A stretch of 61,229 nucleotides of DNA, counting the filler, from Hausera hauseri (lineage: Eukaryota): assembly GCA_046269625.1 (NCBI GenBank). It is 10 parts of 10 records of this genome, joined end to end, with 100 filler letters (N's around TTAATTAATTAA, not from the genome) between each part and the next. Parts side by side here need not be neighbours in the genome. Positions count along the whole stretch, not along the records: positions 1 to 8,289 come from JBJURY010702104.1; 9 more parts are not named here. One strand, 5' to 3'. Made by a program: the position numbers and the translations under genes. The number at the start of each line of letters is the position of its first letter. Position 1 is the first letter of the stretch. This document shows positions 1 through 40,481 of the stretch, piece by piece. The notes under the pieces were generated by a model that was given only the letters and a program-made list of their open reading frames with translations, was not told the DNA's origin and made no database searches.

Positions 1-63
1 AATTAGTTGAAATTAAATAGAAGTTAAAAATAATGTTCCTAGTCTTTGAATATTTACTTTTCA

Positions 64-473
64 GGTGAATTGTGTCCCATTTGCATAGAAGTTTCTACAG
101 ACCGAACCACTCTACCATGTAACCATCAATATTGTCCGACATGAATATTTACGTGGTTAAATGAACAGAATACATGTCCATGCTGCAGAAGAATGTGGAA
201 ATTACAGGATGTTTAAACTTAGTAACTAAAACAATAGTGACACTTTTCTGTCGGCATATGTTTTGTCAAATTTGTATAAGTGAACATTTGCGAAGTAGTT
301 GGTTCTGCCTAGTATGCGATAAATGTATAGAATTCTGTTCCCTGGGATTACTGAGAGTGTACACGGACGTTGATGACAGACCATCAAGTACGTTAATAAT
401 AGATGAAGATGAAGAGGATTGGCCCGAAGAGTGGAGAAATCTTAGACCATTTGTAACCACCGAACACTTATAA
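64..473 (+). pseudogene. Tandem RING-finger (C3HC4) protein, disrupted
   Basis: After an acceptor-like ttttcag (ends 63): CPICIE..LPCNHQYCPT*IFTWL..TCPCCR, with a stop at a Cys position. A frameshifted second RING follows (CRHMFCQICI..WFCLVC), then an acidic tail. AATAAA at 485-490. Confidence 0.75.
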
Positions 474-588
474 TTGTGAGTATGAATAAATATAGTAGTT
501 ATTTTGTTATTGAAAGAATTAATGTTAATTTTGTTAAGATACCCAACTTACCTATTCTACATATAACCATCAAGGAAAGTTTATAGCA

Positions 589-783
589 GTGGGACTCCTT
601 TTTGCTATCTGCTTGAACCTATACTCAATCAACCCCGTTACGTTGGCAAATTGCACCTACGAATTTTGCCGAGCCTGTCTTAAAAAATTATTTAAGGTGT
701 CGGTTTCTTGCCCATATGCCGAAGCATCAATAGGATTTGTAGAAATGGACACAAATATTTTACTACTAAAATGTTGTAGATAA
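589..783 (+). pseudogene. Degenerate RING-finger ORF
   Basis: AICLNL..PVTLANCTYEFCRACLKK..VSCPY matches RING spacing with several ligands lost. AATAAA at 783-788. Confidence 0.6.
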
Positions 784-856
784 ATAAAAAATTTTGTATT
801 TGTGATATGAATATGCTTAAATAAATGTAAATATTTCAGTTAAACTGGAGGAATCA

Positions 857-1300
857 ATGATCCTAAGCACAGAATTCAAAACACCTGAGCAGTATGAATG
901 CACAGGCTCATTTCAACCTAACACAATACAATATCTATTACATTATCAAAACAGACAACATGGACCAGCGTCATTTGGTAAGAGAATAATAAACTACGCT
1001 AAATTAAAAGTGTTAGATGATTCCATGAAGGATACTCAAAATAGGAAGATATCATTTCTAAGTCACCCAGACTTACACATCCCAGGAGAGTTAGCACAGC
1101 TGTACGCGAAAACCGGATTATTCCGAACTACAACAGGACGGATCAAATGTCTCCATTGTCAAGGGGAATTCCAATACGAACAGATGAAAGATCGACAAAA
1201 GGAAGTGTATAAGAAATTGTATTCCACTTGTTCTTACTTACTGGATGTTAATGTAAGTAACATACCTGGTAGCAGAGCGTGGTTTACGCTACCCTTGTGA
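857..1300 (+). CDS. BIR (baculovirus IAP repeat)-like protein, divergent
   Basis: NRKISF..HP..LYAKTGLF..IKCLHC..D..YKKLYSTCSYL..VSNIP follows the BIR pattern R..SF..P..LA.AGF..V.C..C..EH..C.F..NVP. The His ligand is replaced by Tyr. Confidence 0.65.
   Translation: MILSTEFKTPEQYECTGSFQPNTIQYLLHYQNRQHGPASFGKRIINYAKLKVLDDSMKDTQNRKISFLSHPDLHIPGELAQLYAKTGLFRTTTGRIKCLHCQGEFQYEQMKDRQKEVYKKLYSTCSYLLDVNVSNIPGSRAWFTLPL
1267..1284 (+). promoter_or_regulatory. Primer-binding site (tRNA-iMet) of BEL/Pao element 1
   Basis: TGGTAGCAGAGCGTGGTT is complementary to the 3' end of metazoan initiator tRNA-Met. It lies 4 nt after ..TAACA (1262), a typical LTR end. Confidence 0.8.
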
Positions 1301-2899
1301 TCCGGGAGTGTAAACCACGACTTCTGATCGTCTTGAGAAGTTTCCATGTCCTTTTCCTTGGCTCCAGTACTTTTTATCTTCGTTATTTTAATGTTGAACA
1401 AGCGAAAATCTTCTTAAGAGACACCAAACTCACAGATCAAGTCGGAGAAGGTTGTGAAAGTGCTTCTGTGAGTTGCGGTGAAATTAAAGAAGTGCCGCCT
1501 TATAAGAGAATGGTTCGGTTTTGGGCAGAGTGCCCATTAAAATTAGAACAAATGGCCATAGTTCTTAAAAGAACTTGGCTTGATACTAGAGTGACGGAGA
1601 ACCGAAAATTGAAGAGTTTCAAAGAGTTGGAAAGGCACTGGATAAGGAAAGAAGAAAGTCACGCTTCCCAGATAAAAAGAGTTATTGAAACGAGTAGGTG
1701 TGAAGATGGAAATACTAAGGAAGTCTTGACAGAAAAGGAGAAGGATGCTAGTTTTAAACAGGTCTATATAAGAGTTAAGGAAGACGTTTTGATCCTATTA
1801 GATCTAGAAAACGTTAAAACGGTAAGCGTCTTAAGTAGCGAAATAGAAAGCAAATTGAAAATACCAAAAGAACTGTTGAAGTTGATTTGTTGTGGTAAAA
1901 GGATAATAACAGATAAGGACGTAGAGGAGTTAGCTCATGGGACCACTATACATCTAAATTTTGGATTAAAAGGAGGAAGCAAAAAGTCAAATAAAAATTA
2001 CGAGAAGAAACTTAAGGCGAGCTCAGAGAGTTCAAAGAGATTGACAAAGGAGTTTAAAACAAGGTTTTTAAGGAAAGACAAGTTGAAGTCCCGGTTGGAG
2101 AATATACATGGAAGATTATACGTCGACAACTCTGAAGAGAGAATTCGGAAGACCTATGATGAATTCTGTGCAATCTATGAAGAAAGCGTCTCAGAAATAT
2201 TGAAATTTCAGATTGAGGCAAAACAACAAAACAGGCCCGACGAATTAGAGTACCTAATTCAAGACAGAGAGGTCTTAAGTCAACTAAATGCCGATATAGA
2301 AGCTACCAGAGGCATTAATTAGTCAATGGAAAAGACATCGTAAAAGTTATAGAAAATATGAAACAGTCGGCGAGTTGAAGAATTGGTTAGAAGAAGAAGC
2401 TGATATTCGCCGTGTATCTGCAGAATCCGCGCATGGTATAGACGTTCTAGAAAAGAAAGAGCAAAGGAGTGTAAAGCCCGATGATTATCGACATAACAAA
2501 GGTAATGACCACCGTCAAAAACATAGTTCGGAAGAAAAAAGAGTAAACCAGCATTACAATCATTTAACTGAGGTCAAAAGGTTCCAAAATACTAAAAGAA
2601 CGTGTTGGGCATTTGCAAAAGGGAATTGCACTTTCGGGAAGCAATGTAAACATTCGCATGGGAGTAATGAAGAAAAGGGTGGAAACCAAAAGAGAATATG
2701 CAGATATTACCAGCATGGGAACTGCAGAAACGGCGATAAATGTCAGTTCGAACATGAAACTACAGAATCAGATATACTGAGGAGTAAAAAACAACACGTT
2801 CTGGGACCTGGCAATCGGAGACAGACGTCAGATGACATTAGTCAAGAGAAGCTGAGAGAACCCTCATTAAGTGGGAGTCAGAGAAAAGTGAACGAGTAG
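1279..2899 (+). pseudogene. Gag-position ORF: ubiquitin-like domain (1756-1977), coiled coil, two CCCH zinc fingers (2603-2755); one stop/frameshift
   Basis: KQVYIR..TVSVLSSEIESKLKIPKELLKLICCGKRI..GTTIHLNFGLKGG is ubiquitin-like. CWAFAKGNCTFGKQCKHSH and CRYYQHGNCRNGDKCQFEH are both C-x7-C-x5-C-x3-H. Confidence 0.8.
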
Positions 2900-2967
2900 G
2901 AGAAGCTCGAGAGTGGTCAAAATAAGAGCTACGTAACGGAGACACAGCACAGAAGAGAAAAACGAAA

Positions 2968-5900
2968 TGTCTTTGAGGACAATTTCGGTGACTGTGCGCA
3001 ATGGGAAGTACGAGGAGAAGATTAACATCCTATTAGATGATGCGAGTACTGACAGTTACATTAGTACTTAAGTAGCAGAAAAGTTGCAGTTAGAACAAGA
3101 ACCAGAATCGATGTCGGTAGAAGTCTTAGGTGGTGAGAAGAGGAGGAGAAAAGCAACAAGGGTCGAATTTCACCTTTGTAGTTTAAATAGAAAGTTAGAA
3201 GTGAAGGTCTCAACACAAACAATAGAGAATGTTGTAGGTAATCTAAACGCGACCAATTGGAACAGATCGAGAAACAAATGGAACCATTTAAAGGAAATAC
3301 ATTTCCCAAAGGTGATAAAATCAGGAAAGGTCGATGGGTTAATAGGAGTAAATTATATTCAGCTTCACCGAGCAATAAGAGATATCCGGGAAGGAAGGAA
3401 AACCTGTGACTCGATTAACACCCCTAGGGTGGACCTACATTGGAGCAATATCAACAACGAGATCATTGCAGAAGCGAACCAACTTTGTTATATGTTTCTT
3501 CTCAAGTGGAGAAGAATTAAAGGATGATTTAGAGAGGTTATGGAGACTAGAAGATATGTTAGAAAAGAACCAACAGTGGACAGAGGAAGAAGAGGGAATA
3601 ATGGAGAGATCTAAGGAAGATATGAGGTACGTTAATCACAGGTACGAAGTCAAAATTCCATGGAAGAAAGACCCACAAGAGTTGCCAGATAACAATAGAA
3701 TTGCTAGGAGAACAAACTAGCAAAGGATTTCAAATTGAAGGAGGGGTACCAGAACCAAATAGACGAACACGAAAAGAAAGGATATATAAAGGATGTCACA
3801 GACGAAGTGGAAAACAATACGACCGGATGGACTCTACCACATTTTCCAGTTGTAATGAGAGATTCCGAGATGACAAAGATTAGAATAGTGTTCGATGCAG
3901 CTGGAACATATCAAAAAACAAATGGACTCACTTAAAAGAAATACTTTTCCCAAAGGTGATAAAGTCGGGAAGGGTCGATGGGTTAATAGGAGTAAATTAT
4001 GTTCAGCTTCACCGAGCAATCAAAGAGATATCCGGGAAGGCAGGAGAACCTGTGGCTTGATTGACACCACTAGGTTGGACCTGCATTGGTCCAACAATAA
4101 CAACGAGACCAATACGTAAGCGCTCCAATTTCACTCGATGTTTTTTCTCGGGAGAAGCGGAACTGAAGGATGATTTAGAACGGTTATGGAACCTTCAAAA
4201 TATGTTAGAAAGGAACCAACCGTGGACAGAGGAAGAAGAAAGAATAATGAAGAAATCCAAGGAAGACATGAAATATATTAATGAGATATGAAGTTAGTAT
4301 TCCATGGAAGAGGAATCCACAGGAATTACCAGGCAATAACCGAGTTGCTAAGCGACGATTATCACTGTTGGAGAACAAATTACAAAAAGATGTAGAATTG
4401 AGAGAAGGATATCAAAAGCAAATAGATGAGCACGAAAGAAAAGGATATGTAAAACAGGTCACAGACGAACTGGAAAACAATACGACCGGATGGACTCTAC
4501 CACATTTTCCAGTTGTGAGGAGATTCCGAGACAACAAAGATTAGAATAGTGCACGGGTCTTAGTTTAAACGATATGATTCATCAAGGGCCAAAGTTGCAA
4601 TTAGACCTAGTAGATATATTAATCAGGTTCAGAAAATACAAGATTGCTATGGTGTGTGATATTACAGAAATGTTTCTACAAATTTGGGTGACACAGGATG
4701 ACCGAAGATACTTAAGATTTCTTTGGAAAGAAAAAGATACTGAGAAAGTCTATGAATTTCAAAGATTTGTATTTAGATTGAATACATCACCATACCTAGC
4801 ACAATTAGTGAGTCGTGTAAACGTTAAGAAACACGCCAAACGTGTACCTAAAGCGGCATGGGTAGTTAAAAACGCTACGTACATGGACGATAGTTTAGTG
4901 TCTGTTAGGACAGAAAACGAAGCAGTAAAAATGTACCGTGATCTAAAATGGTTGTCGAGTCAGGCCAGTATGTTAGCGAGAAAATGGGTCTCAAATTCCG
5001 AGAGATTGCGAGAAATCATACCGGAAGATAAAAGATAAGCGTGTTACCAGATGGTAAATGAAGAGACCAAGACAAAAGCTCTAGGTATGAGGTGGAACGC
5101 TAATAGTGACGTATTCTCCTTCGATAAAAAAAATCCAATTAGAAGAAATTACTACAAAAAGAAATTTTTTGAGCTCAGTAGCTAGAATATTTGATCCATT
5201 AGGGTTTCTTAGTAGTTATTTAATGAAAGGAAAGTTGATTATCCAAGAAATGTGAACGTACGGTGCAGATTGGGACGAACAATTCCCAGACCACCTAATC
5301 AAGCGAGCGAAAGAATGGGTATCATAACAGGGTTTAGATAAAGTTAAAATAAGACGTGTCCTAATAGCCTCCCAGGCACCGTATGAAATACATATTCTGT
5401 GATGCGTCCAAGGATGTTTATAGAGCCGTGGCTTACCTGGTCACCACGGGAGATAAAAGAAAGGGTAACATAATCGTAGCAAAAAGTAAAATATCGCCTA
5501 CAAAGGTAGTATCGGTACCACGAATGGAGTTACTAGCTGCAGTAACAAGAATAAAAGTAGGACAGAAGATTTCGATGGCACTAGAATACGATAACAAACA
5601 GTTGTGCTATTGGAGTGACAGTATGGACGTACTACATTGGGTAAAGCAACACGGGAAGTTGTATAAAATCTTCGTAGCAAATAGAATCAGTTATATACAA
5701 GAAAGGTCAAAAGGAGCGCAATTGAGGTACATACCGACTAAAATTAACCCTGCAGACGTTTTAACTAAAGGTTCCACAATAATTCAGTTATCTGAGAAAC
5801 AGTTATGGTGGCAGGGACCGGAATTTTTAGTAAAGGCCGAAGAAAGTTGGCCAATACAGCCGACCATAAAAGAAGAATTCGATAAAGAAAAGAAGAAATT

Positions 5901-7466
5901 GACGCTACACACGAATATTCCGATTGAACAAATTATCTCAGAAGAAACAGTGCAAGAAAACTCAAGATGGAGCCAACTTATAAACATGAAGGCTAGAGTT
6001 GAAAAACAATCAAACGGATAATCAAAGTGGTGGAGATGAAAGCCAATTATTCAAAAAGGCTAGAGTACTGATATTGAAGGAAAATCAAAAGAATGAATTG
6101 GCTGAGGATTTGAAAGCATTGGAAAGAGGAATAGAACCAAAAGGAAGAAGTTTGATTCGAAAAGCCAACCCAATAATCACAGAAGATGGACTAATTAGGA
6201 GTAATAGTAGGCCGGTAACAAGTGAGTTCTTGCTGTGGGAGTTCAAATACCCAGTAATACTACCAAACAAAAGTAAAATAGCCAAACTCATCGTGGAACA
6301 TTACCACATGAAGTTAAAGCATTGCGGAGGGATAAACCATCAAATAGCGGAGATTTCACAAAAGTATTGGATCCCCGGGTTAAGGAAATTAGTGAAAAGT
6401 TACAACACTTATTGTAAGAGATGCAGAGAATATAATGCAAAAGGAATGAAAGTTGAAATGGCACCAATCCCAGAATTTCGATTGCGAGAGCCTTTAAAAG
6501 CCTTCGATAAAGTAGGAATAGATTATGCTGGTCCCATATTTACGAAACAAGGACGAGGTAGACCTAGAGGAAAAAGATATCTGCTTATTTAGCTGCTTGA
6601 TGAACAGACAAGTGCACTTAGAAGTAGCTACAAACTTGGAGACAAACGCCTTTATAAGGGCCTTTCAAAGATTCATGGCCAGGCGAGGAAAACCATCTCT
6701 TGTGATAACAGATAACGGAACCAATTTTGTAGGCGCCAACAAAGAAGTTGTAGAAATACGGGTCGACTCATATCGAATAAAGCAGGAGTTAGAAAAAGGG
6801 GAGATCAGATGGATATTTAATCCGCCTTCAGCACCACATTTTGGAGGAGTATTTGAAGCGATGATAAAAGCTACCAAAAGAGCACTATATAAGGTACTGT
6901 CAAATGCAGACGTTAATGACGAAGAGTTAAACACGGTATTGATTGAAGTTGAAGCAATCTTGAATTCAAGACCCCTAACTGTATCATCTGGAGATGGAAG
7001 AGATGACGTTCTTTTATCACCCAATCATTTTATAATAGCGGGATACCAAGGGGAGATGGGTGATAGCCTAACCGGGACTACAAAAGCACAGATGAATAGA
7101 CGCTGGAGATATATACAGAGCTTAGTAGATCAATATTGGATAAGATGGCAAAATGAATTGCTAACGAAGTGGAGAGATAGGACAAAATGGGATTCTTGTG
7201 GCGAAAGCCTAATGGTAGGGGAAGATGTTTGGCTACTAGATGGAAACAGTAAAAGAGGGCAATGGCCAGTGGGAAAAATAACAAGAATATTCCCGGGAAC
7301 GGATGGACAGGTTCGGGTCGCTGAGTTGAAAATTGGAGCAGAAACGATGATAAAATCCGTGAATAAAATGTGTAAGATCAATGAGAGGCTAGAGGACTGG
7401 ATGGATAATGATACAGCTATAGTCCGGATTACCCCAAGGAGGAGGGAAATGTTGGAACCCGACTGA
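2968..7466 (+). pseudogene. pol: BEL/Pao pol (PR-RT-RH-IN), multiply frameshifted
   Basis: Ordered Pao motifs across ORFs 3084-7466, including TPLGW, YMDD, FDPLG, FCDAS and integrase DDE motifs. Confidence 0.93.
3273..4550 (+). repeat. Diverged tandem duplication of ~640 bp inside pol
   Basis: About 3273-3890 and 3918-4550 both run from aacaaatgga..tttcccaaaggtgataaa to gattagaatagtg and encode parallel TPLGW..TTGWTLPHFPVV peptides. Confidence 0.85.
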
Positions 7467-8289
7467 CTAGTTGGGTAATCCGGAAGACTTGAAGTATAGA
7501 TAAGAAAGGTGTATATAGTATATATAGAGATATGCGTGCGAGCATGCGTGTGTTTATGTATAGAACGGAGTGAGTGAATGGTAGCGTTGAATATAAGTAT
7601 ATTGTACATATATATTTTATGTTTATCATGTGAATTTTGTGTGGAATTGAGATTGTTTGAGAGAAACCTGCGTGCATGAAGATGTCAGGTATGTGCGAAT
7701 ATTTAAAAGAACAATGTGATGTAATAAAAATGCAAGTGTGACAATTCCTGTCAGCATTCGGAGGACCGGGGGGGCAGGGAAATCGTTGTGGGAGCATTGT
7801 TTTCGCTGCGATTGCATTATTCGTGAGCTACATCATGAAGCTATTGACAGTCCATTGCTACGATTATGTATCTTATACCATCTCCATAGGATGCTAAAAC
7901 AACTGCGTTTAATTCAAACGTATTGATAGGTCCAATTACAATGTTGTATAACAAAAGATGGTTAACTTGCACAGTCCGGTAAGGACCCTCGGGGATAATA
8001 CGACGTGTTTGTGATAACAAAGAATTAAGGTGACGGAGTTTCTAAAGAATTAAAAAAGTATGATGAAAATCGCGTCGAGGCTTCATCAAAGTTGACGAAT
8101 TTCGATGAGACAATCACTATGAAATGACAAGAACAAATATCAAACAATGTCTTAAAATGGATAAAGGTAGTAGAAACAAAATGGAGAATGAACTTGATAG
8201 CTCATTACTCACCGAAGCCTTCAGAATTTATCCTAGGAGTTTATTTTAGGGAAAATTGTCGAATAGGTGGAATGTATAGCAAAATCCAA
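7436..8289 (+). repeat. Polypurine tract (7436-7449) and start of 3' LTR (TGTTGG at 7450), truncated by contig end
   Basis: AAGGAGGAGGGAAA followed by TGTTGGAACC. The same junction occurs at 31063-31086. Confidence 0.8.
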
Positions 8290-8389
8290 NNNNNNNNNNN
8301 NNNNNNNNNNNNNNNNNNNNNNNNNNNNNNNNNTTAATTAATTAANNNNNNNNNNNNNNNNNNNNNNNNNNNNNNNNNNNNNNNNNNNN
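8290..8389. other. Artificial contig spacer (N-run/TTAATTAATTAA/N-run); repeated at 12628, 20045, 26799, 32019, 42751, 47068, 51573, 56324
   Basis: Identical 100-nt spacer with a six-frame stop linker, nine times. Confidence 0.98.
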
Positions 8390-9679
8390 TCACTGATTTA
8401 ATTCTTTCAATGATGACTACAATTTTATACTTGGAAATAATTATTTCCCTTTAACTATTAATTGCTTACAACCCATTACTCTACAGTTACCATTTTTGAA
8501 AACAACCAAAGTATATTTGTCCAATCTCAGTACATATTGTTGCGGTTTCCATTGATTGAATTGTAAATGTTCACGATAATTTATTGTTAAAATCATATTG
8601 CTTACATTTACTTTTTCCTTGCATCTAATATATTTTTTACGTGTGACGCATACTCCATAAAATTCGATTTTTACCTAAAATATTTCTCTAAAACCACATA
8701 AAGTTCATGTGTTCAAAGTTCACATGTACGTAGAAAATTCGTTTTCCTCTTCTGTACAATGATGGAGATGCGTAAAAACTTTGCGACACACACACACATC
8801 CATAATCAGTAACCGATGACCGATCGATTAAACCCGATTATGTTTAATTTGGATGAAATTTTTTCCAGTTTCCACAGGGTATGCCCGATTTTAGATGTTT
8901 CTCATCGCACTTCCGTTCCGGATTGGGTTATTTACATTCGGACACCGTGATCGAATAGCCCGCGTCTTGGGCTTTTGTTTGATATGCTACTCTACACTAG
9001 ATTCCATCATCAGTGCACACACATATGGGTCTTTGGGACGTAATCGGTGCATAGTGCTGCTTTCTTCCAGGTACNNNNNNNNNNGGCTACTCTTCGCCCT
9101 ATTATTACGGGATCGGTGCCGACTCACCGATAACATTTTCCAGTTCCTCATAAACCATATGCCAGCCCTGGCGAACCTTTTTGCCCTCGCCTCGTTCCTT
9201 GGGCTTTCGATGTGCCATTGCTGTCCTATCATTTCTGTGCCATACATGACCGTACACCATTTCCTTCTAACATCCGCTTTTTTCGTGTACTTCCCCTGCT
9301 TCCGGGGTGCACCGTGCACTTTGATGGTGTTTTTTGAAATCTCCGTCGACGATTCTTCCTAGCCAGTGCCTGTGCGCATCAAGCACGCTTCGGATTGGCT
9401 GCGTGGTGGGAGGTGGTGAGCCAGGACCGGCATTTTGCTAATACTGACCACTAATACCAAAAATTCGAAGGAGACTTAAACAATTGAATAATGTTCATAA
9501 ACATCTCAAATCAGTGACTAAGCGGTGCGTAAAGAATACAAAGACGAAGGACATTTACTAAAAACGCATATAAATAATCGCACTATACTAAACAGCACAA
9601 AGATAATCACCGGTGGGTACGTAGAATATCCTGTACAATATTGTTTACTTACTCGAATGTAATATTGTCTGGTGATATC

Positions 9680-12383
9680 TAAATTCTGAATAAATTGTGG
9701 GACAAATTAACACGTTCAATCACCTTGATTTCGTTCCCGAATAGACTTTCGATTTTCTTCCGCAGTCCTTTCAGTTTCTCAATAGCAACAGTTCCCTCGG
9801 CCCGACAATCGTTCATTGTCTGAATACCAATATTCGACACAAATCGACAATAGTCATACTTTATTCAACTCCTTCTCGTAACATGCAATAAACTCGCTAA
9901 TTGGAAATGCAGCACGTTCAGTCGGTGTCAGATGGCCAATTCGATCTTTGTTCGGCCAATCTGACGATAGGAAGTACATTAGACAGGACCTATTATGTAA
10001 CATCATAGATCGTGCGTCACATTATCCAATAATTCACCTGAAATTTTCCCAAATATCCGCATCACAAAACGGACCATCTGACCGATGCCGGATATCGGTA
10101 CTACCGAGTGGCAGCCAAATGTCTAACTGATGGTCCTGATTGTCAATTCGTACGCAACACTCATCGGTCCTAAATTCTTGTACATATCCGTTCAGCCAGC
10201 TGCCGTTGACGAGCACCTGTACATGACGGATAGTGGAACTGTACGGCAGTACGGTGTCTGTCTACAACAAAATATGACTGTGTATCGCCAATTAAACATC
10301 AAATACGACAGATTCCTCTTTAATTCGGACTTCTGTTGATTCTGTCGTACGGTCGTCACCTGTTGATGGAATATTTGAATCGGTATTGTAGCTCATTGAG
10401 TACGACTCATCGGAATGTGCTAATGGTAACCAACTGATTTCCGTTGTATCGTTATTTCCCTATGTAACGTCAGCCAGTCACTTGAACAACAATGACATAC
10501 GTCAGATGAATCCATTTTACGCATTTTCTTGGACCCTGGCCCGCCATAGGTTGAAGACGAATACGCCCTTCTGCCTTTGCGATACGCGAAATTGCGTGTG
10601 TTGTCTATTGACGATGAAGTAGGTTCACTATCAGTTGATGTGTTCTTGTCATCAGAACTGCCATCGTCGGACGAGTCATTAATCCTCAATTGACTGTCTA
10701 GTTGTTCAATTATCTGTAAGGTCCAGTTCGTCAATTTCTCCATCCGATGAGGTTCCAACGTCTTCATGGGAATGTCCAATTGTTGCTCCACATCTTCACA
10801 TCTGGATGGTGACAATTGGTTTCATAATGTGTTAGACTTTACTAACGTGTTGCAGTCTTCATCGGAATTATCCTCACATTGCCAATTCAACGGCAATTCT
10901 GTATCGAGGTCATCATCAGAGAACGACAGCAACCGGCATTTTCCGCATTTGTCTACGAACAGCACAATCAAAGCACCATTATTGAACATGACCAACCGCA
11001 TTGCACACTGCGTCTGACATTCATGGCTCGCACCCTCCTGTAATGCCAGTCGTTATTCGGCGAGATCCGATAGTCAGCGGACAAATACCCAAACCCTGTC
11101 CACATACAATCAACGACGGTGCCAAACATACCAATGTGCACACAATACTGTTCCATATACAGCTCCATCACCCACAGTAATTCATTAAGTTGTTGCTGGT
11201 CGACGAAGTCCTGTCGGTCATCAGTGGGCTGCAGCGCCATAGCGGGCAAATCAACAATGCCAACAACTCCGCGATACGTCAAACCTGGATCCTTCTGTGG
11301 ACCAATGCGCAAATGCATCTTGACGAGACGAGAACAACTATACACATAAACTCCATCACACGCACGGCTTTCCAAATTAACCCCGTAGTGAAATGTGATA
11401 ATTTTCGACTTATCAATGGCAAACTGCTTGAATTTGTAAATGATCTGCCTGCCTTGCAGCTTACGACGGCAATCTGCTACCGACGGATCGTCTTCAGCTT
11501 GGTGATTTGATGAGTCAGATTCACTATCGCTCTCATCCCACTGATTCACTTCTGCCCGAAATAATGCAATTTCCGCTATAACAGAATCAGCATTAGCTTT
11601 CCTAGCGAATTATATACCTTTTCTCAATTCTTTTTTCTCCTTCCGCATTATCGATTCCGTACGACGTGCGAAAATTCTATTGTCATACTGATACATATGG
11701 GGTTTATATAGACAATTGATAAGCCGTCGAGGTTGCACTTTAATACCGTTAAGATAAATTTTCATGCGCGGAACCAGGTAGAGAATGGATACGTATTCAC
11801 GCAAACTGTACCGTTCCGACCACGGTCTAACAATGGAAAAAATCTTTAAACATAAAAAATGATCGTACTCATTGTCGGCACCTGGATGCATTAGAATTAT
11901 ATCTTGACTATCGCTGAGAACATCAAGTTCAGGAACACCGCAATCAAGCACACGTACGTTGTAAACAACGACTAAAGTACCATTCGGCTCTTTTATTCTC
12001 TTAAACTGAGACAACAGATTCTCCAATCGTTTGTACGGAGAATATTTAAGAATAATGGACACCTCTATCTCGTGTCGCTGTTTTTCTTCGGATGTTTCTA
12101 CGACGGCCGAATTATTCGATGCTCTGAACGACGGCAACGGTACGACAACTTCTGATATTTTTTCCATTGAGTGAAATGTGTTTGACAACAACATGCATGT
12201 TAAAATTCCGTCTTTCTTGGTGAAAAGAATCATGTCATCACCAATCCGCAAAGCGCCACTGTAGACAGCCGATAAAGGCACAAGGCAAATGGATACTCAC
12301 GATTTCAAACTGATTCCGTTTATTCCAATAGACAGTAAGTCATTTTGGGGCTTTTTGAATTCAATGAGGTCGTGGATCTCATC
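9680..12383 (-). CDS. MORC2: MORC-family GHKL ATPase with CW zinc finger (MORC1/2 type), spliced, 5' exons missing
   Basis: LKSGALRIGDDMILFTKK..VVVPLP, SLREYVSILY..PRMKIY, GVVGIVDLP..QDF, CW finger VQCDKCGKCR..WQC..N.D..C, and a C-terminal coiled coil. The frame is restored by GT-AG introns at 12259-12300, 11827-11868, 11576-11617, 10953-10996 and 10802-10846. The 3' end is approximate. Confidence 0.85.
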
Positions 12384-14314
12384 TGAAAAGATAAATAAAC
12401 AGTTCTAAACACCTTCAATTTAAAATAGACAAAATCTATCGTATAAATTAGTGAAATATAGTATCTATTTTGCCTACATATACAACCTCTCATTCAACTA
12501 GAAGTTGATTCATTACAGAGTGAAGTGAAATTTGATTTCAACGTTAACAAGAACGCAATAAATGTAGAAAAGATAATCTTTGCATTATTTATTACAACAC
12601 AGTTTGTATTTTTATGAAAATCAATACNNNNNNNNNNNNNNNNNNNNNNNNNNNNNNNNNNNNNNNNNNNNTTAATTAATTAANNNNNNNNNNNNNNNNN
12701 NNNNNNNNNNNNNNNNNNNNNNNNNNNGGCATTTTGAAAAAGAAAAAACGAATGCTAAAATTGACTGACATTTTGGAAATTGCGTGACTGAATAACTGGT
12801 GAACAGAAAAGGTTAATAAAAAATTCTGATTGACATTTTGAAAATCACAAGGCAAATACTATATAAACCACAGTAACTGAGATACAATAACCATAAAATT
12901 TAATCTCAAAGTAATATTACTTAATACGAAATTAGTGCGTGGAAGAATATTGGTGAGTAGTTTTTCGTCAATAATGATAATAAATGAATAGTATTATACA
13001 GAAAACAAATACGAAAGTTTACTACTCATAAAGAATTTCTGCTACTGCCGGATTGAAGGATATCTCTGTCATAACATAACTTCGCTGAACGAAATTCTAT
13101 TTATTACCTGATCAGAAGATGATGAATGACCAAGAAAGAAATGGAAATCAACAAGTAACAGAAGAACCTATTGGTAAATTTATCATTAGCAAATTATTTG
13201 ATTGAAAGATTTTGTTCTATATTGAATGTATTGATTTAAGTCATTAGAGTGTTTCTTCATAATTGTGGTTGATGTTTTTACCTTTATGATTAATAGTCGA
13301 ATCATGATTTATAATTAACACTGCGGAAAAAATAGAAATATTGATAATGATAATTCCTAATAGTTCAAGTTAACGAAAATATTCCCAAATGATAAGTACA
13401 AAGAAAAAGAGATTTGAATTTATTAATACATTATTGGATTATTGGGATTAGATCGGTTGCTTGAAGATGACGGAAGGTAGTGAAATTCGTAATAACAATG
13501 ACCTATTTTTGAATTGAATAGTTATGAAAAATAACATGGACGACTGAATGAAAACCTTATGCGTAGAGGAAACGAATGAAATTACTACTGTCAGTAAATT
13601 CTGTCTCATATTCATTATTATACTGTAAATAAGATTATCGATGATCGTCAGGGAGATAATAGAAGATTAATGGTATCACGATTGAAGTGAATGTGAATTT
13701 TCTCGAATATTTAAGGAAGAAATAATTCTATAAGTGGTATTGGGTGAAGCAAAGAATAAATCTGAAATAAATCAAATGAAAGATGTCGATGTTTGGAAGA
13801 TAGAATGTCAATATTGCAATTGTGTCAATATTTAAAGTGAAACTTCTCTAAGAAATTAAATATCGGATAAAGAAGTTATATACTAAATTAAATGATGGCC
13901 GCTATATTTATATGTATATATATATTTTGTACATTGTATTTATTTGTTATACAATAAATTTTATTACTGTAAATGATGTCCATCATAATTATTCGAATTG
14001 TTGATTATTATAACATTAAAACCAATAATTGGGATGTCGTAAAATCTCTCAAAGTTGAAGGAGTAGAGAACGTTTGATTAATTAATATTAAACAATATGT
14101 TTAAAATAATTAAAAATAAATTAAATACGTATAATCAATAATTGACTTGGGAAATCATGAAGTAAATTTAGCATAGTGCGAAAGAAGATTAATGATGTAG
14201 ATGAATTAATACTAGTGAATGGACGCAGATTATTTTTATGATCGAACCGTCCGCAAACTCACCCTTTCAGAACACACAATAAAATATTTATCATAAGAAT
14301 GTTTTTACTCGCCG

Positions 14315-15989: not shown

Positions 15990-18900
15990 GTTTTAAAATT
16001 TTGAACTAAAGATTTGTTGTTTGCATCTGTTCGTTTTTCTCTTACGGAGCAAACCATTTAAGAATATCTTAGAAATAACACCCAACATTAAATTTCGTCG
16101 CTCTAGTACAATTACTCGTTCGATTTCGATACCGTAAAACGATTTCTTCTCTTCATCTTGTCCAATAATCATTTGCCAGTCTCTGTATATATCTCCAACG
16201 CGCAGCCAAAGAGCATTGACGAGTAAAATTAACTTAATTATTAATCCCTCCATTATAACTTGGTATGATGAAATGATTTGGTGATAATATGACATCATAT
16301 TTTGTGTATATTACAGTACTTGTAATAGGCCTGGAATTGATAATTCCATCTACAATAGTTATCACTGTGCATAGTTCTTCTTCGGTTATATTGGCATTCG
16401 TCAAAATTTTATACATAGCTTTCTTAGTTGCTTTTATCATAATCTCGAAGACCCCTCCGAAGTGTGGAGTCCCTAGTGGAGTAAATATCCATCGAATCGC
16501 GCTCTTCCCAACTGTTACTTTGCGGCATATGTATCAATTCTTACTTCACAAAGTTCGCTATTTGCACCTACGAAATTGGTCCCATTGTCGCTCACGATAG
16601 TATTCTGTTTTCCGCGACGGTTCATAAATCTCAATAAGGCTTGTACAAAGGAGTCTGTAGATAGATCTACAACCAATTCCAAATGAATCGCTCTACACTT
16701 CAAGCATGTAAATAAACATATGTATCTTTTTTCTGTCGACATGCCTCTGCCTTTCTTGACTGGGATTGGTCCTGCAAAATCTATTCCCACAACACTAAAT
16801 GCTCTGAGTGGTTCTTGAAAATGGAATTCTGGCAATGGTACCATTGGTTGTTGGACTCCTTTGGCACTATTTTTACGGCACACCTTACAATCATGTTCAA
16901 CCTTCTTTATTAACTTCCTGAGTTTGGGACACCAATACGATTTGCTTATTACAGCGTATATGTGAATAATCCCAGCGCCATATTTATGTTGTACATGATA
17001 GTGTTCTATTAACCACTTGGTAATTTTCAATTCTTCTGATAGTACTATTGGGTACTTGACAGACCAGTCTAGGTACTTTATCAACGACAAACGACTATTG
17101 CTCCTAATTACTCCATCACTGCCGAATATAGGGGCAGCTTGTTGAATATTGCTACTTCTTTTTACTTCCTTCCCATTTTTAAGTTAATTGATTTCCTCCT
17201 TGAAGTGTTCTTCTTGTTCGTTTTTTATAATATTGATAAAAACATCTTCCCTAGTTAAATCTTTACTACATTCCTTTAACATCTGCTCCTCGCCATACCT
17301 ACTCCATTCAGAATTTCTTTCAATATCCGTTAATATAGCATTTATGTTTTCATTTGTTTGGGTTGAATATGTTTTTATAACTCTCTTTTCCTCATTTCTG
17401 CCTCTTCTAGGATTTTTGGTTGTTCTGGCCAAAGTTTTTCTTCCAACTTCAGGAACATAAATCCTTCCCACCATATATCCAATTTTGCGACTTCTTCCAC
17501 AGTGGTTCTTCTTCGAGAGATAGTCTGCTGGGTTCTGTTTAGTGTTAATATAATTCCATTTTGACCCTTCACTTTTCTCCTGGCTGAAACCTATTCTATT
17601 TGCAACATAGGGTTTATAGCACTTCGAATATTGTTTGATCCAAAAGAGAACATTCATTCTGTCATTACAGTATGTTATTTTTACATTTGCTACTTGTAGA
17701 ACCTTCGCCACCTTCATGCACAGTTTCACTCTTATGCACACAGCCATCAATTCCAACCTAGGGATTGATATAGATTTTATAGGGGCGACCTTTGACTTTG
17801 CCGCAATTATATTTGTTAATGTTTCTCTGTCACTTATACACCTAATATAAGCTACTGCTCCATAAGCTGTGCTGGATGCGTCACAGAATACATGAATTTC
17901 TTTGTTATTGGTACTATCTATTCCTAACCACCTTCTTATTTTTTTTTGCTAAAGCACTTAGGACGTTTCTTTTGGTCAATCCACTTTTGCAATTCCCTAC
18001 GCCGTCAAAAGTTAAACAGTCTTCTTTTGCATTCCACTTAAGTCCTAAAGTTTTTGACGTACAATTGACCTCACTTTTGGAGGCGTATTCCTTTGCTTTT
18101 TCGTTTTCCGGTATCTCGCGATATAATTGGTCAGAATTCGATAACCATTTATGGGTCTTCATTTTTGCTGTTCCCCAGATTTCTTTCAACTGGTAGTATA
18201 AATTCATAGCTTCACTTTCTGTTTCAATGGAATCTATGCAGGCATCCATATATGTTGATTGTCTAATTGTTTCAACTGCCCGTGAATATTTTTTCTCAAA
18301 TATATCTGCGTTTACTTGACTCACAAGTTGTGCCAAGAATGGTGAGGCATTCAATCTGAATACAAGTCTTGTGAACTGATAGGTTTCGATCTTACCATTT
18401 CTTCTCCACAGGAATTGTAGGAATTTTCTGTCATCTGGTGAAACACTAATTTGTAGGAACATTTCAGCTATGTCACAAATTAGTACGATTTCATTTTTTC
18501 CTCATTTGGATTAGGATGTCCACTAAATCTTGCTGCAACTTTGGCCCTGAGTGTAACAAGTCATTAAAACTTTTACATTTTAACTTCGCAGCTGCATCGA
18601 ATACTATTCTAATTTTTTTGGTGGATCTATCCGGTTTCAGAACGGGGAAATGTGGCAACGTCCAATAATTTGCTTCGTTTTCCTTCTTTTCTACTAATTC
18701 CACATATCCTTTTTTATATGATCTTTAATCACTTGTTTATAATCTACCTTCACCGAGTTATCTGAACTTAATTTCTTCTCCAGATATTCAAGCCTTTTTC
18801 TGCCATGTATCTGGGCATTGGTATCTCTTCTCTCTTGCTTTTCCAGGGTAGAGAAATCTCATACCTTCCATCTTCGGTCTTCTTCATCTTATCTTTTGTA

Positions 18901-20044
18901 ATTTGGAAAATTTCTTTGTCCAATTTCGACTAGGTTTCTTTTTCTTTAACCGAATTCTCTATCTCCCACAATCTTTTTATATGTTCATTCATTTCGTCTA
19001 CCCTCGTCCAGTATGTTCTTACTAAATTGTTACTTACTAAACTGCCTTTTCGTTCATTCAGAATTACGACACATGTCCAACCAAGGGGAGTCAATCTAGC
19101 TATTGATCCTCCCGGTTTCCCCGAAACTTTGTTTATGGATTTATGAAGGTGTAGGTAATTTGCACCTATAATCCCATCTACTTGCTCATTTTCTCCCACA
19201 CCTACAAATTTAATCCCTTGTAAGTAGGACCATCGTTTTTTTCTATTGTCCAGTTGACAACATTCATGTTTCCTGTTGGCCTTCTAATGGGTAGTGCGTT
19301 GAACTGTTCACAAATGCTATTGTCTAAACTTTGCAAGATCATGTGAACTTTTGTCATTTTTTGCTTTTGTTGCATACCCACGACCACTGCCACTGTAATA
19401 TTTTCTTCTTTCCCACTGAGCTTCAATTGTCGTGCAATATCTTCTTCCAGGAAACTATCAGTACTAGCGTCATCCAATAGCATGTTCACTTTAATATTCT
19501 TGTTTCCGTTAATTAGGTATACTGATATGGTCCTCAAGGCTATTTTGTTTGGCATTTCAGATTTTTCTTCCTTCATCTTCGTCATGTAAATTCGTTTTTC
19601 TGAATAATCGCATTTATTTGTTTGGTAAGAAGTATCGTTCGATTGTGATTTTGTTCCGTCGGTATCTGTAGAGGTTTTGAGTTTTTCGTCTTTATGTAAA
19701 TTTCCATAAAGAATTTTTGAGTAATTGACTTCTTATCTTAAAACGTTTGGGGAATTTCCATGTTTAAACCAACAATTTCTACCGTACCTGCAATCTCCAC
19801 TTTGAAAATATAGACAAGGTTTCTGATTTATAGTCTTATAAAAACTCTGATCTTTCTTTTCATGTCGGTATGCACATGATTCACCAAACTGGCATTTGCC
19901 AGCTAGGAAATATTTATAAGGTCTCCGTTGGATCTCCTTATTTTTCCAACAATTATCACTTCTTTCAATTCTTTTTCCTTTAGTACTGAACCAATCTTCT
20001 CTGTTGACTTACTCCTTTCCTCCTTTTTCTCGGTAAAAAAGGAA
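15990..20044 (-). mobile_element. BEL/Pao retrotransposon copy 2 (decayed, partial) with tandem CCCH fingers
   Basis: Minus strand: YKYFLAGKCQFGESCAYRH and CLYFQSGDCRYGRNCWFKH (~19758-19920), then LLDDAST, TPLGW, KIRIVFDA, YMD, GIDFAGP, DNGTNF, SPNHFI. Confidence 0.92.
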
Positions 20045-26898: not shown

Positions 26899-29800
26899 AA
26901 CTGTAAATATTCTCACAAATCTAGTAAAGACGATCAGGAAAGGATATGTAAGTACTTTGAAAAAGGAAGATGTAGATATGGGAAGGATTGTAAGTTCCTA
27001 CACAAAAAGTTGGCAAAAAAAAATAATAATAACAACAATGATAACAAAAATAGACTGGAGCATGAAGCCAGAAAGCCTTATGAAAGAATGGCGAATGTAG
27101 ACACAGAGGTATCGTTGCTTGGCAAGTTAAAGGAGAAAGACAGAGGAGGGGTTGAAAATCAGCAAAAGGACGTTAGAACCTATGTAACCCAAGGCTTTCA
27201 GAAGATAAATGAAGAAGAAGAGGTCGTAGCTCTGAGGACAGTGGAAGTATGACTGAAAAACCGAATGAAGAGACAAAAAACAATAATGTTGTTAGACGAT
27301 GCAAGCACGGAAAGTTTCATCGATTTAAAGATATGCGATGAATTAGACGTTGGCAGAAAAACGGAGAGATTGACGGTGACGGTTGTCGGAGGGAAACAAA
27401 CAAAGATGTCTATCGACAGAGTAAAATTGGGACTGGAGAGTATAGATCAATCTATAGATATTAAATTCGAGGCGTTGGCCATAATAAATCCAACTGGGAA
27501 GATGAAAGCCGTGAACTGGTCCATAGAGAAACAAAAATGGCCTCATCTGAGGTATCTGAAATTCGCCACAATGTCCCACAAATTGCAAGTAGATGATATC
27601 ATAGGGGCGAATTATATAGAGCTACACCAGTCAATCGAGAAGGTCTAGGGCAAAAAAGGTGAACCAGTGGCACGGTTGACTCCCTTGGGCTGGACCTGTA
27701 TGGGATTGATAAAGAAAGGAAAAAGAAAAATAAATGGTAATTTTGTGAAGACCTTCTGGACTAGAACCGAAGAGATCCAAAATGACTTGACCCGTTTGTG
27801 GGAGATCGAGTTCAACTTTGACTCAAAGGTGTCTGAGAGAAGCTTACAAGAAGAGGAGATCATAGGACGGGTATTTGAAGACACGACCTACGAAGAATGT
27901 AGGTATTGCGTACCATTACCCTGGAAAGGGGGAAGATGACCGGAAATCGAAACAATTAGTGGTTGGCACAAAAACGACTAAATATTCTAAGGAATAAGTT
28001 GGATAAGAATGAAAAGGCTAAGGTGGCCTATGATAAGGTAATAACAGCCCATACTGAAGAAAAATATATTCGAGTGGTGGAAGAGCATGAGGAACGGGAA
28101 TCAGCTTGGCTCTTGCCGCATTTCCGTCATGAAAATTGACAGGGAAACCACAAAATGTCGAATAGTTTTCGACGCCGCTTCGAAATATCGGGGACAATGT
28201 CCAAATGACTTTTTAGAACCCGGTCCAAAATTACAACTGGACATTGTGGATATACTATTGAGAATGAGAAAACGTCAAGGGGTAGTAATATGTGACATTC
28301 AAGAAATGTTTTTGGGAATTAAGGTAAAACCAGAAGATAGGAAATACTTGAGATTCCTATGGTATAAAGATGGAAGACTCAAAACGTATGAGTTTAACCG
28401 GTTGGTATTCGGGTTGAATGCCTCTCCGTTTTTGGCGCAATTGATTTCAAGGTATAATGCCGAAAAGTTTAAGGATAAGTACCCTAGAGCTGTAGAAACA
28501 ATTGAGTGTTGTACATACATGGATGACTGCATCGATTCAGTCAGTACTGAAAGGGAAGCTGTATTACTGTATAACGAACTAAACGAGATTTGGAAAACAG
28601 CTGGAATGGAACCTCATAAATGGTTGTCGAATTCTGACGAGTTGATAAATTTAACACCCATTACAAGTCGAGCAAAAGAAATCAATATAGTAAAAAAGAC
28701 GGACGTAATTACCAAAACGTTAGGCATGAAGTGGAGGGTTGAAGATGGTGAATTCGAATTTGAAGATAGAGACAAGCAAGGATTGGAAATAACGAAAAGG
28801 ACATTGTTAAGTGTTCTGGCAAAGGTTTTCGATCCGCTGGGTTTTCTTAATTGTTATACGTTGTTAGGCAAGATGTACTTACAACAACTGTGGATAATGG
28901 ATGTAGATTGGGACAAGAAAATTCCGAAGGAGTTGAACGAAAAAATAAAAACATGAGTGAAGGGAATGGAGAGATTGAGTATAATTAAAATACCGAGGAA
29001 CCTACAGTTTAAAAAAGATGGTAGCAGTAAAATACACGTATTTTGTGACGCCTCAAGATCGGGATATGGGGCGGTAGCTTACTTAAGGTCAACTATAAAA
29101 GAAATTCATGTAGTGATCATATGTTCAAAAGACAAGGTGACGCCAGTAAAGTCCATCGCTATACCTATCCTGGAACTAATGGCAGCATGCATAGGGATCA
29201 AATTGGGAAAGAAAGTGGGGAAGATCTTATGCAAAAGCAAGGATGAGATACGGTATTGGATGGATAGTATGAATATACTGTATTGGATTAAAGGATGTAG
29301 CAAATATTATAAGACGTTGATAGCGAATAGAGTTGGATACATTCATGAGGAGTCAATTGGAAGACAATGGAACTACATGAAGTCGGAACAAAACCCGGCA
29401 AACTACCTATCGAGAGGGCTGGGTATCGAAGAACTCCAAAGTAAAATAGAGTGGTGGAATGGCCCGGAGTTTCTCAAGAAAACAGAAGATCAATGGCCAA
29501 ACCAACCAAACGAGTTACCAAAGCCAAAGGACGAGGAAAGAAGAAAAGACATTTGCATTTATGTCTTCGAGAACTATATCGCGCAGGGAGGAGCATAAAA
29601 ATCAAGGCAATGAATACGATACGGAACAACTTGTTGGATCCCGTTGGGAAGAAATGGTCAGACGGAAGGCAGTGGAGATATCACAGATGGATGGAAACGA
29701 TTCTTTAAAAGTAGAATTATAGAGGAGAGCTAAGATGGAAATAATTAAAGAGGATCAATGGAAGGAATTTTCCCGGAAATAAAGGATATACAGACAAAAT

Positions 29801-31076
29801 GGGAAGTCAGTATCAAAAGTACTTTCGTGAAATTCAACACCATTTTGGATGATGAAGGGATACTAAGATCAAGTAGTAGACTAATCACAACTTCCTGGTT
29901 AAATTGGGAGCAAAAGTATCCCATAATTCTATCTGCGAAGAGTTTTCTAACGAAGTTAATCATAGAAGACGTTCATTTGAACTTACAACATTTAGCGGGA
30001 GTCAATCACCAAGTTTCCGAGTTAAGTAATAAGTATTGGTTCCCCAGAATGAAAAAGCTAGTCAAAGCTTATCAAAATTACTGGAAGGTATGTAGGAGGG
30101 CGAATGCAAGAGGAATACATACAATAGGAGCTCCATTACCAACGTTTAGGACACGACTACCTCTTAAAGCTTTTGACAAAGTGGGATCGATTTCGCTTGG
30201 CCAGTGAAAACACGACAGAGACGGGGACAAACTCAAGAGAAAAGGTATATCTGCTTAATCACGTGTCTACTCTGTAGGGGTATACACGTTGAGATGTTAG
30301 TCGGGTTAGATATGGATTCCTTCTTAAAAGCTCTGAAACGCTTCATGAGCAGGAGGGGGAGACCTTCGTTGATAATCTCCGGCAACGGGCGAACGTTCAT
30401 TGGAGTAAATAATGAGATATGCGAGTTCCAAATCGACACGTATACCCTTAAAAAGGAACTCAAGGATACAGAAATAAGGTGGATATTCAACCCCCCTGCC
30501 GCTCCTCACTTTGGAGGCGTGTATGAAGTAATGGTTAAATCAGTAAAAAACTCACTAAATAAATTATTTCCGGAAGCTTCCGTGACGGATGAAGAATTAG
30601 GGACATTGCTGATAGTAATTGAAGGGATAACCAACAATCGACCATTAATAAGAGCTATTGACGAGTGTAAGAATGATATCGTCTTATCTCCTAATCATTT
30701 CATAATAGCCGGACACAACGGGGAAATCTCTTCGGAGTTGACAGGGATTAGGAATAGTAGTTTGGCTGACAGATGGAGATATATACAAAAATTAGGGAAG
30801 GAATACTGGGATTGTTGGAGACATGAACTTTTGAGAGAATGTAGAATTGAAACCTGGGGACAAATTATGGTTGTTAGAGAAAAATGAAAAATTTAACCAC
30901 TGGCCCGTCGCAGAAATTACAAATATATTCCCTGGGACAGATAACGTGGTGGAGATAAAACTTAATGGGGAACTTTACAAAAGACCGGTGAATAGGATGT
31001 GTAAAATTGGGAACAATTAGATTGGATAGAAATTGAAGAAGGGTCGACAAACCGGATTACCCAAGGAGGGGGGGAA
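26899..31076 (+). mobile_element. BEL/Pao retrotransposon copy 3 (decayed, 5' truncated) with tandem CCCH fingers
   Basis: Starts NCKYSH..RICKYFEKGRCRYGKDCKFLH, then LLDDAST, TPLGW, KCRIVFDA, YMDD, FDPLG, FCDAS, PHFGGVYE. PPT at 31063-31076. Confidence 0.93.
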
Positions 31077-31400
31077 TGTTGGAACCGACCGTTTTGTTGG
31101 GGAATCCGGTCAAACTTCAACGGGAGAGGTATAGTGGATATAAAAGATGTATATAGTGTATATAATACATAAAACATATATATATAGGTATGTGTTTATA
31201 AATGTATATAAGAGTGCTCACATGTTGATCGAGTGAAATGTATAATGGCTGATACTATGATTGCATCGTGTCTAAGAGCTGTATCAAAAATTAGATTGTT
31301 AAGGGTACTAAAACAATGGTGAATGCAAACAACTCCTGGCGGCATTCGCTGGGACGGGGGAATGATGACTGTGACCAAAAGTAAAAAAGTATAACGTGCA
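31077..31400 (+). repeat. Start of 3' LTR of BEL copy 3 (right end undetermined)
   Basis: TGTTGGAACC after the PPT. The TA-rich tract and the motif at 31329-31360 are shared with copy 1. Confidence 0.7.
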
Positions 31401-40480: not shown

Positions 40481-40481
40481 C

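Follow-up and report, generated by a model that had tools for sequence, protein, structure and literature searches.

For LTR retrotransposons, polyprotein processing is assumed to be the work of the element's own protease. The locus described here raises the question of whether an element of this kind could leave an early step to a deubiquitinase of its host. In the window, by which we mean the whole 61,229-nucleotide stretch of Hausera hauseri DNA that was analysed, the position just before Gag in one retroelement is occupied by a 74-residue segment that ends in HLNFGLKGG and continues with SKK. The original prediction held that this ubiquitin-like domain (UBL) may let host deubiquitinases (DUBs) process the polyprotein, or may be released as a conjugatable modifier working with RING ligases of the element itself.

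Architecture of the element

The window is made up of separate contigs chained by N44-TTAATTAATTAA-N44 spacers, and the UBL was found in the first of them (1-8289). A Pfam profile search shows it to contain the remains of a BEL/Pao retrotransposon in + orientation, with pol domains in the order RVT_1, Peptidase_A17, Integrase_H2C2, rve (weak) and DUF5641; the protease was located by tblastx to relatives. The features of the contig are collected in Table 1.

This copy is dead. It carries stops, frameshifts and a 630-base internal duplication, and about 150 codons of the capsid (DUF1759) are gone, as deduced from the distance between GG and KLP, which is only 107 codons here compared to 254-280 in six relatives. 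Relatives have both the DUF1759 capsid of Gag and nucleocapsid fingers, whereas in the window copy the capsid is gapped and the fingers are of the CCCH type instead of the usual knuckles. Such CCCH fingers occur in all three BEL/Pao elements of the window (2600-2755, 19760-19930 on the - strand and 26899-27030), where they are an apparent nucleocapsid replacement; the relatives carry the usual zinc knuckles. Two of these elements also share about 100 bases around the polypurine tract (PPT) and LTR start (7424-7526 and 31052-31164), with an inverted repeat bracketing the PPT, and then diverge.

Table 1. Features of the UBL-bearing BEL/Pao copy in the first contig of the window
Feature	Position	Strand	Evidence
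RING finger remnant 1	43..213	+	Pfam zf-RING_2 E 9.4e-8, X read at in-frame stop 142-144
RING finger remnant 2, in a different frame	165..473	+	Pfam zf-C3HC4_2 E 1.7e-4, below cut-off
RING finger remnant 3	538..783	+	Pfam zf-RING_UBOX E 1.7e-6
Open frame before and across the primer-binding site (PBS), first Met at 857	821..1300	+	148 open codons upstream of the PBS vs 2-3 in the other frames
Degenerate BIR-like domain	~1103-1240	+	Pfam BIR E 0.005, below cut-off; XIAP BIR E 0.08
PBS	1267..1284	+	Same 18 bases in L001-L003; polyprotein frame gives G-S-R-A-W
Variable leader	1285..1755	+	Stop-free in the UBL frame only; no Pfam match
UBL ending in L-K-G-G	1756..1977	+	Pfam, phmmer, AlphaFold2, Foldseek
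Gly-Gly, predicted cleavage point	1972..1977	+	Among copies, variants listed are synonymous only
Gag N-terminal helical region	1978..2322	+	Alignment with P0120 after the UBL of P0120
End of capsid domain and two CCCH zinc fingers	2300..2899	+	tblastx to L001-L003; zf-CCCH_4 E 4.7e-13
Aspartic protease region, broken	2967..3527	+	tblastx to L001 and L002 at 40%
Internal tandem duplication	3258..4551 (3258-3890 / 3902-4551)	+	The two parts are 79% identical
Reverse transcriptase piece	4550..5038	+	RVT_1 E 3.6e-9
RNase H piece (Pao Peptidase_A17)	5368..6021	+	E 1.6e-17
Integrase (H2C2, core, DUF5641), two frames	5990..7466	+	Pfam
PPT (7436-7449) and probable 3' LTR start (TGTT at 7450)	7436..7800	+	

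Identity and fold of the ubiquitin-like domain

The Pfam ubiquitin profile (PF00240) matched the window UBL with an E-value of 2.7e-5 and 24.3 bits, just missing the curated cut-off of 25.4, and matched the UBLs of relatives with E-values from 3e-9 to 1e-32. Using phmmer against the PDB, residues 2-74 were aligned to residues 2-76 of ubiquitin with a single 2-residue gap and with the GG in register. The best single-domain chains were RUB1 (E 2.9e-4) and ubiquitin (E 3.6e-4), the identity to ubiquitin being 26%. AlphaFold2 gave no usable fold for the lone sequence (pLDDT 42). With a 10-row alignment a strand-strand-helix-strand-helix-strand model was obtained at pLDDT 75, but six of these rows were ubiquitin-type proteins, so that the model is biased towards this fold and is confirmatory only. 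Foldseek matched it to ubiquitin and NEDD8 chains (TM 0.72-0.76), with 443 of the 500 best matches at E<=0.001.

The L[RK]GG motif occurs four times in 122,454 translated positions of the window and so proves little by itself; the evidence lies in its register with the domain. Additionally, the alignment to the relative P0120 continues past the UBL into the N-terminal helix of Gag (E 0.002). The profile match, the phmmer register and the predicted beta-grasp fold thus bear out the original description of a ubiquitin-fold-like segment ending in LKGG, and the alignment that crosses into the Gag helix bears out its placement at the Gag position. We conclude that the window UBL is a ubiquitin-derived beta-grasp domain.

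Distribution among BEL/Pao elements

A search of long proteins with the integrase part gave 1339 matches, and the best 120 were compared; 119 of these 120 carry PF05380. PF00240 was found in five of the best 120, at ranks 2, 3, 4, 5 and 8, and in none of the other 115; a local UBL HMM agreed, with the same count of five in 120. The five carriers are full Gag-Pol frames of 1987-2536 amino acids, with the UBL-GG placed ahead of the Gag helix and DUF1759. In four of them 129-150 residues separate the GG from the capsid match, and in P0122 the spacing is the same by alignment. P0123 retains at its N-terminus an 8-residue UBL remnant that ends in LKGG. A metagenome scan reduced 468 pattern matches to four loci (L001-L004): L001 and L002 encode P0121 and P0125, and L003 is a new UBL member. 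L004, which lacks a UBL, was considered as a counter-example and dropped, its best matches being outgroup proteins.

In an integrase tree of 121 rows, built by a quick method, the window element, six UBL proteins and P0133 (available without its N-terminus) formed one branch with an SH-aLRT of 100, the window row sitting on a long terminal branch. A short reverse transcriptase (RT) tree, with 37 rows drawn from three window pieces and 34 of the 120 relatives, was weaker: there the window row stood only beside the group, together with one outgroup row (support 93). Two further BEL/Pao elements of the window, 16400-20044 (- strand) and 26899-32018 (+ strand), nest among the UBL clade in this tree with a support of 92; their 5' ends are cut by contig ends and both are predicted to carry a UBL.

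Outside the clade, no UBL was found in the 79 relatives with a capsid match (85 of the best 120 have such a match), although 65 of these 79 have at least 127 residues before it. Besides the window element, the same layout is present in five intact polyproteins, one fragment (P0123) and one new locus (L003). These eight members come from four sources and are kin, not independent cases, and the relatives are single metagenome-type contigs in which chimeric joints are possible. Altogether, as judged from these alignments, a UBL directly before Gag is a clade-wide feature of a BEL/Pao group, and the L-x-G-G ending is retained in all eight members. Neither of the two outcomes that would have spoken against the original prediction, a missing beta-grasp fold or absence of the domain from all other family members, was observed.

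Word-index searches with the 349-residue UBL frame gave no matches. When 1.84 billion proteins were searched without a profile, 115 matched, most of them in several stretches of the UBL part; no retroelement was among the 12 examined, which were polyubiquitin-like, Ub-S27a or an unrelated UBL fusion. Viral contigs contained neither a relative nor an exact PBS. We also observed an unrelated 310-residue protein, P0089, in which a UBL ending in FGLKGG, the tail seen in the window, is fused to a helical domain.

Conservation of the C-terminal tail

The seven full UBLs are highly divergent, with pairwise identities of 18-55% (median 25) and identities to ubiquitin of 25-76%. Only L43, G47, L73, G75 and G76 are invariant among them, and the diglycine is in register with G75-G76 of ubiquitin. 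The GG is followed by Ser in three members, by Gly in three and by Met in two, and never by Pro; these three residues make up 9% of following residues. Pro after the GG blocks DUB cleavage, and Ser, Gly and Met are stabilising N-termini according to the classical N-end rule. The two arginines of the ubiquitin tail are treated differently: position 72 reads G, R, G, G, R, Q, V, G, with Arg in two of the eight members, and position 74 reads K, L, L, Q, F, F, V, K, basic (Arg or Lys) in two of the eight and never together with Arg72. The binding surface (8, 42, 44, 68, 70) varies freely, in contrast to the invariant L73/G75/G76; the Ile44 patch is intact in the window UBL and lost in P0119, P0125 and L003.

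To describe variation among copies, 110 contig pieces of run X1, which may be the window's own sample, were compared over 1900-2040. They showed 16 replacement variants over 59.7 sites and 16 silent variants over 15.3 sites (pN/pS 0.26, p 2e-4; 0.16 at a 5% share floor). The UBL-Gag junction region is therefore under purifying selection among the run X1 copies. No variant was listed at 1963-1976 and no replacement in G-L-K-G-G, where the 1% listing floor for variants is higher than upstream; the only changes listed for the last Gly codon are silent ones at position 1977, in 28 and 9 contigs. Since 13 of the 25 codons are without a replacement variant, two given codons would both be so by chance with a probability of 0.26 (hand calculation), and the invariance of the GG within the genome is weak evidence if taken alone.

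Two of the UBLs have a mosaic appearance. Over residues 1-41, identity to ubiquitin is 88% in P0120 and 90% in P0125, but over residues 42-76 it is 63% and 29%; moreover, P0120 carries the tail of a second, canonical ubiquitin ahead of its UBL. These mosaics would fit repeated recombination with host ubiquitin mRNA. P0120 could be an assembly chimera, its polyubiquitin piece being identical to canonical ubiquitin. In the case of P0125 a simple assembly chimera is argued against by differences from canonical ubiquitin even in the 1-41 half. The basic tail that follows the GG had pointed to Ub-S27a as a possible source, but this was rejected, shuffling giving p 0.05-0.58 over all eight tails.

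Reading frame across the primer-binding site

The PBS at 1267 is, we assume, of the initiator-Met tRNA type, and the clade would in this respect differ from the tRNA-Arg or tRNA-Gly priming given in the ICTV profile. In all six intact members that reach that far, it is read as G-S-R in the frame of the polyprotein. Ty1, with a PBS that may lie inside GAG, would be a parallel.

In the leader between PBS and UBL, the UBL frame of the window copy has no stop in 154 codons, against 13 and 14 stops in the other frames, and none of 20,000 shuffles was stop-free. In all four DNA loci this frame is stop-free over 98-176 codons, with 4-14 stops in the other frames and shuffle rates from 0 to 0.002. The open stretch of the polyprotein frame ahead of the PBS extends over 85, 135, 148 and 539 codons, the first two reaching the contig start, compared to 2-24 in the other frames. 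In the window copy the frame is broken by a frameshift somewhere within 1273-1300, where the family contigs differ in length.

The LTR ends of L001 match in inverted orientation, and the stretch ahead of its PBS is assigned to the LTR because its end is the inverse of the beginning of the 3' LTR. L002 begins with the 3' end and PPT that are also found in L001, followed by 1.8 kb up to the PBS, a stretch that we read from this arrangement as a collapsed LTR. The open frame ahead of the PBS in the window probably lies in the 5' LTR. Two local features of the relatives may be added here: the end of the 5' LTR in L001 (1-288) is a 30-base tandem repeat that is stop-free in the polyprotein frame, and in L003 (240-270) the first 7 bases of the PBS recur, perfectly inverted, immediately ahead of it.

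Two outgroup proteins have the Met of Gag within about 7 codons after the PBS. Since the outgroup Met comes so soon after the PBS and the frame of the clade is open ahead of it, the start seems to have shifted upstream in the clade, with a UBL set at the old start of Gag. P0122 and P0123 read M-D-E/D directly after the GG, as if the UBL had been joined to that old start. The original prediction had overlooked a frame that starts upstream of the PBS, and it is this frame that would give the cut a purpose.

Host-like sequences upstream

Several of the upstream regions resemble host proteins. The 1.8-kb stretch of L002 encodes an intronless TRAF-like frame that continues into Gag-Pol (RING E 0.008, zf-TRAF E 5e-8), and the N-terminus of P0119 contains a DnaJ-A fragment (E 6e-5). 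No known domain was found by Pfam upstream of the PBS in L001 and L003.

The three RINGs of the window (43-783) are separate, broken frames upstream of the PBS; a RING in frame with the polyprotein is found in L002 only. Neither an LTR repeat pair within 1-8289 nor any match between the 3' LTR start at 7450 and the sequence upstream of the PBS (1-1266) was found. Because nothing is shared between the two, the RINGs could be LTR cargo, the LTR then exceeding 2 kb and being near in size to the 1.8 kb of L002. That they are host flank beside a truncated LTR is equally possible. Summed contig depth was lower over the RINGs (28-75) than over 832-7756 (249-12,512), but, as contig depth is not copy number and run X1 may be the window's own sample, it does not discriminate between the two readings.

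Proposed processing and alternative explanations

Taking sequence conservation as a guide, we consider it likely that a host deubiquitinase cuts after the GG and leaves Gag-Pol with a defined N-terminus. Such processing is supported by the invariance of Leu73 and the GG in otherwise very divergent UBLs, by their location at the Gag boundary and by the lack of Pro in the next position. On these grounds the first half of the original prediction is supported; its second half, a modifier acting with the element's own RINGs, is not, as Arg72 and Arg74 are never present together. Translation would begin in the part of the RNA that derives from the 5' LTR. During or soon after translation, and before the element protease matures the particle, a host DUB or UBL protease would cleave after the GG. 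Gag would then be left beginning with Ser, Gly or Met whatever had preceded it, and the freed leader-UBL piece, ending in GG, would be degraded or be briefly active as cargo.

The UBL would serve as a cleavable linker, by analogy with FUBI or SDE2, rather than as a conjugated modifier. FUBI (FAU) and SDE2 are cut at a diglycine, after which the N-terminal piece is cleared by KLHDC2 (PMC8013793), and the ubiquitin insertions of pestiviruses are cut by cellular hydrolases (PMC8310069). As Arg72 and Arg74, which many DUBs use, are mostly lost, general DUBs may cut poorly. Cleavage of SDE2 needs the equivalent Arg (PMC13572447), and in FUBI a non-polar residue at the position of Arg72 restricts cleavage to USP16 and USP36 (PMC10611586). 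By the same analogy, the cut proposed here may need a specific enzyme or be slow.

If the UBL instead stayed attached as a binding domain, for recruitment of the proteasome, ESCRT or p97 or as a solubility aid, the GG would be structural or a recent relic. The loss of most Arg72 and Arg74 residues would agree with this, and in P0120 and P0125, which are partly young as judged by their 1-41 half, the GG may be inherited and not selected; the Burro element of planarians provides an internal Ubi2/SUMO-like motif for which the relevant passages of PMC6431247 report no cleavage. Against this, the binding surface varies freely while L73/G75/G76 are kept even in UBLs only 25% like ubiquitin, and the GG of the mosaic P0125 lies in its diverged half. 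We therefore regard an uncut domain as unlikely. Cleavage could, on the other hand, free a working modifier, which E1 would activate and the element's RING ligases would help to conjugate. The cut would indeed expose a C-terminal GG, RING remnants lie upstream in the window, L002 has its TRAF-type RING in frame, and the G72/K74 of the window UBL presumably resembles the tail of NEDD8. Conjugation has also been reported for FUBI (PMC10611586). Nevertheless, the tail recognised by E1 is not conserved: no UBL has both arginines. K48 is kept in three and K63 in one of the seven UBLs, the modifiers of sister elements would differ from each other by 45-82%, and RINGs accompany only two of the eight members, those of the window being broken and out of frame. 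Altogether this makes a conjugated modifier very improbable.

The junction might also be cut by the aspartic protease of the element or by a protease carried as cargo, the GG being merely a flexible site. Retroviral-type proteases favour hydrophobic sites, and such enzymes would need neither a folded UBL nor Leu73. Belpaovirid polyproteins are assumed to be self-processed (PMC8742986), and the N-terminus of P0122 resembles an Ulp1/SENP8 fragment by eye, a likeness that neither PDB nor Pfam supported and that was set aside as a candidate. Overall, processing by one of these proteases seems quite improbable. Finally, the UBL could be a passenger or an assembly artefact, a scrap of host ubiquitin in one dead copy; the decay of the window copy and the canonical polyubiquitin piece of P0120, perhaps a chimeric joint, point in this direction. 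Against it stand eight members from four sources with one layout in one clade, the purifying selection among copies, and 110 contig pieces that span or reach into the junction region, among which no joints were listed, so that this is an extremely improbable explanation. Cleavage by a host deubiquitinase thus remains our preferred reading. If it is true, the clade relies on a host enzyme for an early step, which would be a point of host control, and the element would be free to alter its 5' end.

Relation to known systems

A close precedent is found in cytopathogenic pestiviruses (BVDV Osloss, CP1, CP Rit), where a host-derived ubiquitin likewise lies inside the polyprotein and immediately precedes a viral protein. 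There it signals processing by host hydrolases, and it is captured by RNA recombination (PMC8310069). These insertions are recent, near-canonical and short-lived and belong to an RNA virus, whereas in the BEL/Pao group the domain is clade-fixed, has diverged to 25-76% identity with ubiquitin and precedes Gag. If cleavage occurs, the clade would have kept over deep evolutionary time what pestiviruses use only briefly, and the ubiquitin fusion technique would have a counterpart in nature.

A diverged UBL with a diglycine junction is likewise known from FUBI-eS30 (FAU), SDE2 and the ubiquitin-ribosomal fusions (PMC10611586, PMC13572447, PMC8013793). FUBI also lacks Arg72 (PMC10611586), and the fragment cut off ends in a diglycine degron (PMC8013793). 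They are host genes in which the UBL comes first in the protein and the proteases are proven; in the elements a leader of 76-183 codons and LTR-coded sequence precede the UBL, and cleavage is predicted. With the UBLs that keep only L-x-G-G as a test set, one could ask which minimum of ubiquitin is required by a DUB.

Among retroelements, the giant Gypsy-like Burro/GYPSM1 of planarians also combines an LTR polyprotein with a Ubi2/SUMO-like motif and with BIR, TRAF-related and RING-related domains (PMC6431247). It is a Gypsy element with an N-terminal Gag and the UBL downstream, and the passages on it in that paper describe no diglycine junction or cleavage, whereas the present group has a Pao-type Pol and the UBL upstream of Gag. 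With canonical BEL/Pao elements (Belpaoviridae) the group shares the PR-RT-RH-IN order, Peptidase_A17, DUF5641, PBS and PPT, in the relatives also the DUF1759 Gag, and probably the LTRs; no UBL is mentioned for them (PMC8742986, PMC3118150). The ICTV profile of the family gives a non-coding region before the PBS, tRNA-Arg or tRNA-Gly priming and LTRs of 0.2-1.2 kb (PMC8742986). In the UBL clade the region before the PBS would be coding and one putative LTR has 1.8 kb.

In the literature searched, with Repbase reports, GyDB, subscription journals and supplements outside its scope, no description of a UBL-GG-Gag fusion in BEL/Pao was found. The word ubiquitin has no occurrence in the main texts of PMC3118150, PMC6238403, PMC8556966 and PMC13524379 and is absent from the ICTV profile (PMC8742986); PMC9289625 deals with extra domains in plant elements and, in the portion consulted, has ubiquitin only in a reference. 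As far as the excerpts of PMC6431247 go, the closest published parallel is Burro, which carries its Ubi2/SUMO-like motif downstream of Gag.

Regarding the host-like pieces, LTR-mediated retroposition likewise captures pieces of host mRNA by template switching, often in sense and in frame (PMC5131818). It is described there as replacing internal sequence of a defective element; here the pieces lie upstream of the PBS of complete Gag-Pol frames. We tentatively suggest that the LTR may act as a swappable coding cassette, in which captured host mRNA pieces (TRAF, DnaJ, BIR and possibly the RINGs) provide a start codon and N-terminal cargo. The ubiquitin-GG might then be an adaptor through which host DUBs release effectors of cell-death and ubiquitin pathways, the UBL being refreshed at times from host ubiquitin mRNA.

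Other features of the window

In the remainder of the window, two adjacent Morc6_S5 frames with a stop between them were seen at 10968-12296 (- strand), and 47168-51572 is a contig of complex tandem repeat. On other contigs, 40213-41121, 44159-45777 and 58416-60622 hold a dynein-motor-type AAA frame and two more retroelement pol remnants, and 55448-56371 (- strand) matches a retroviral-type envelope family (TLV_coat, E 1.7e-8).
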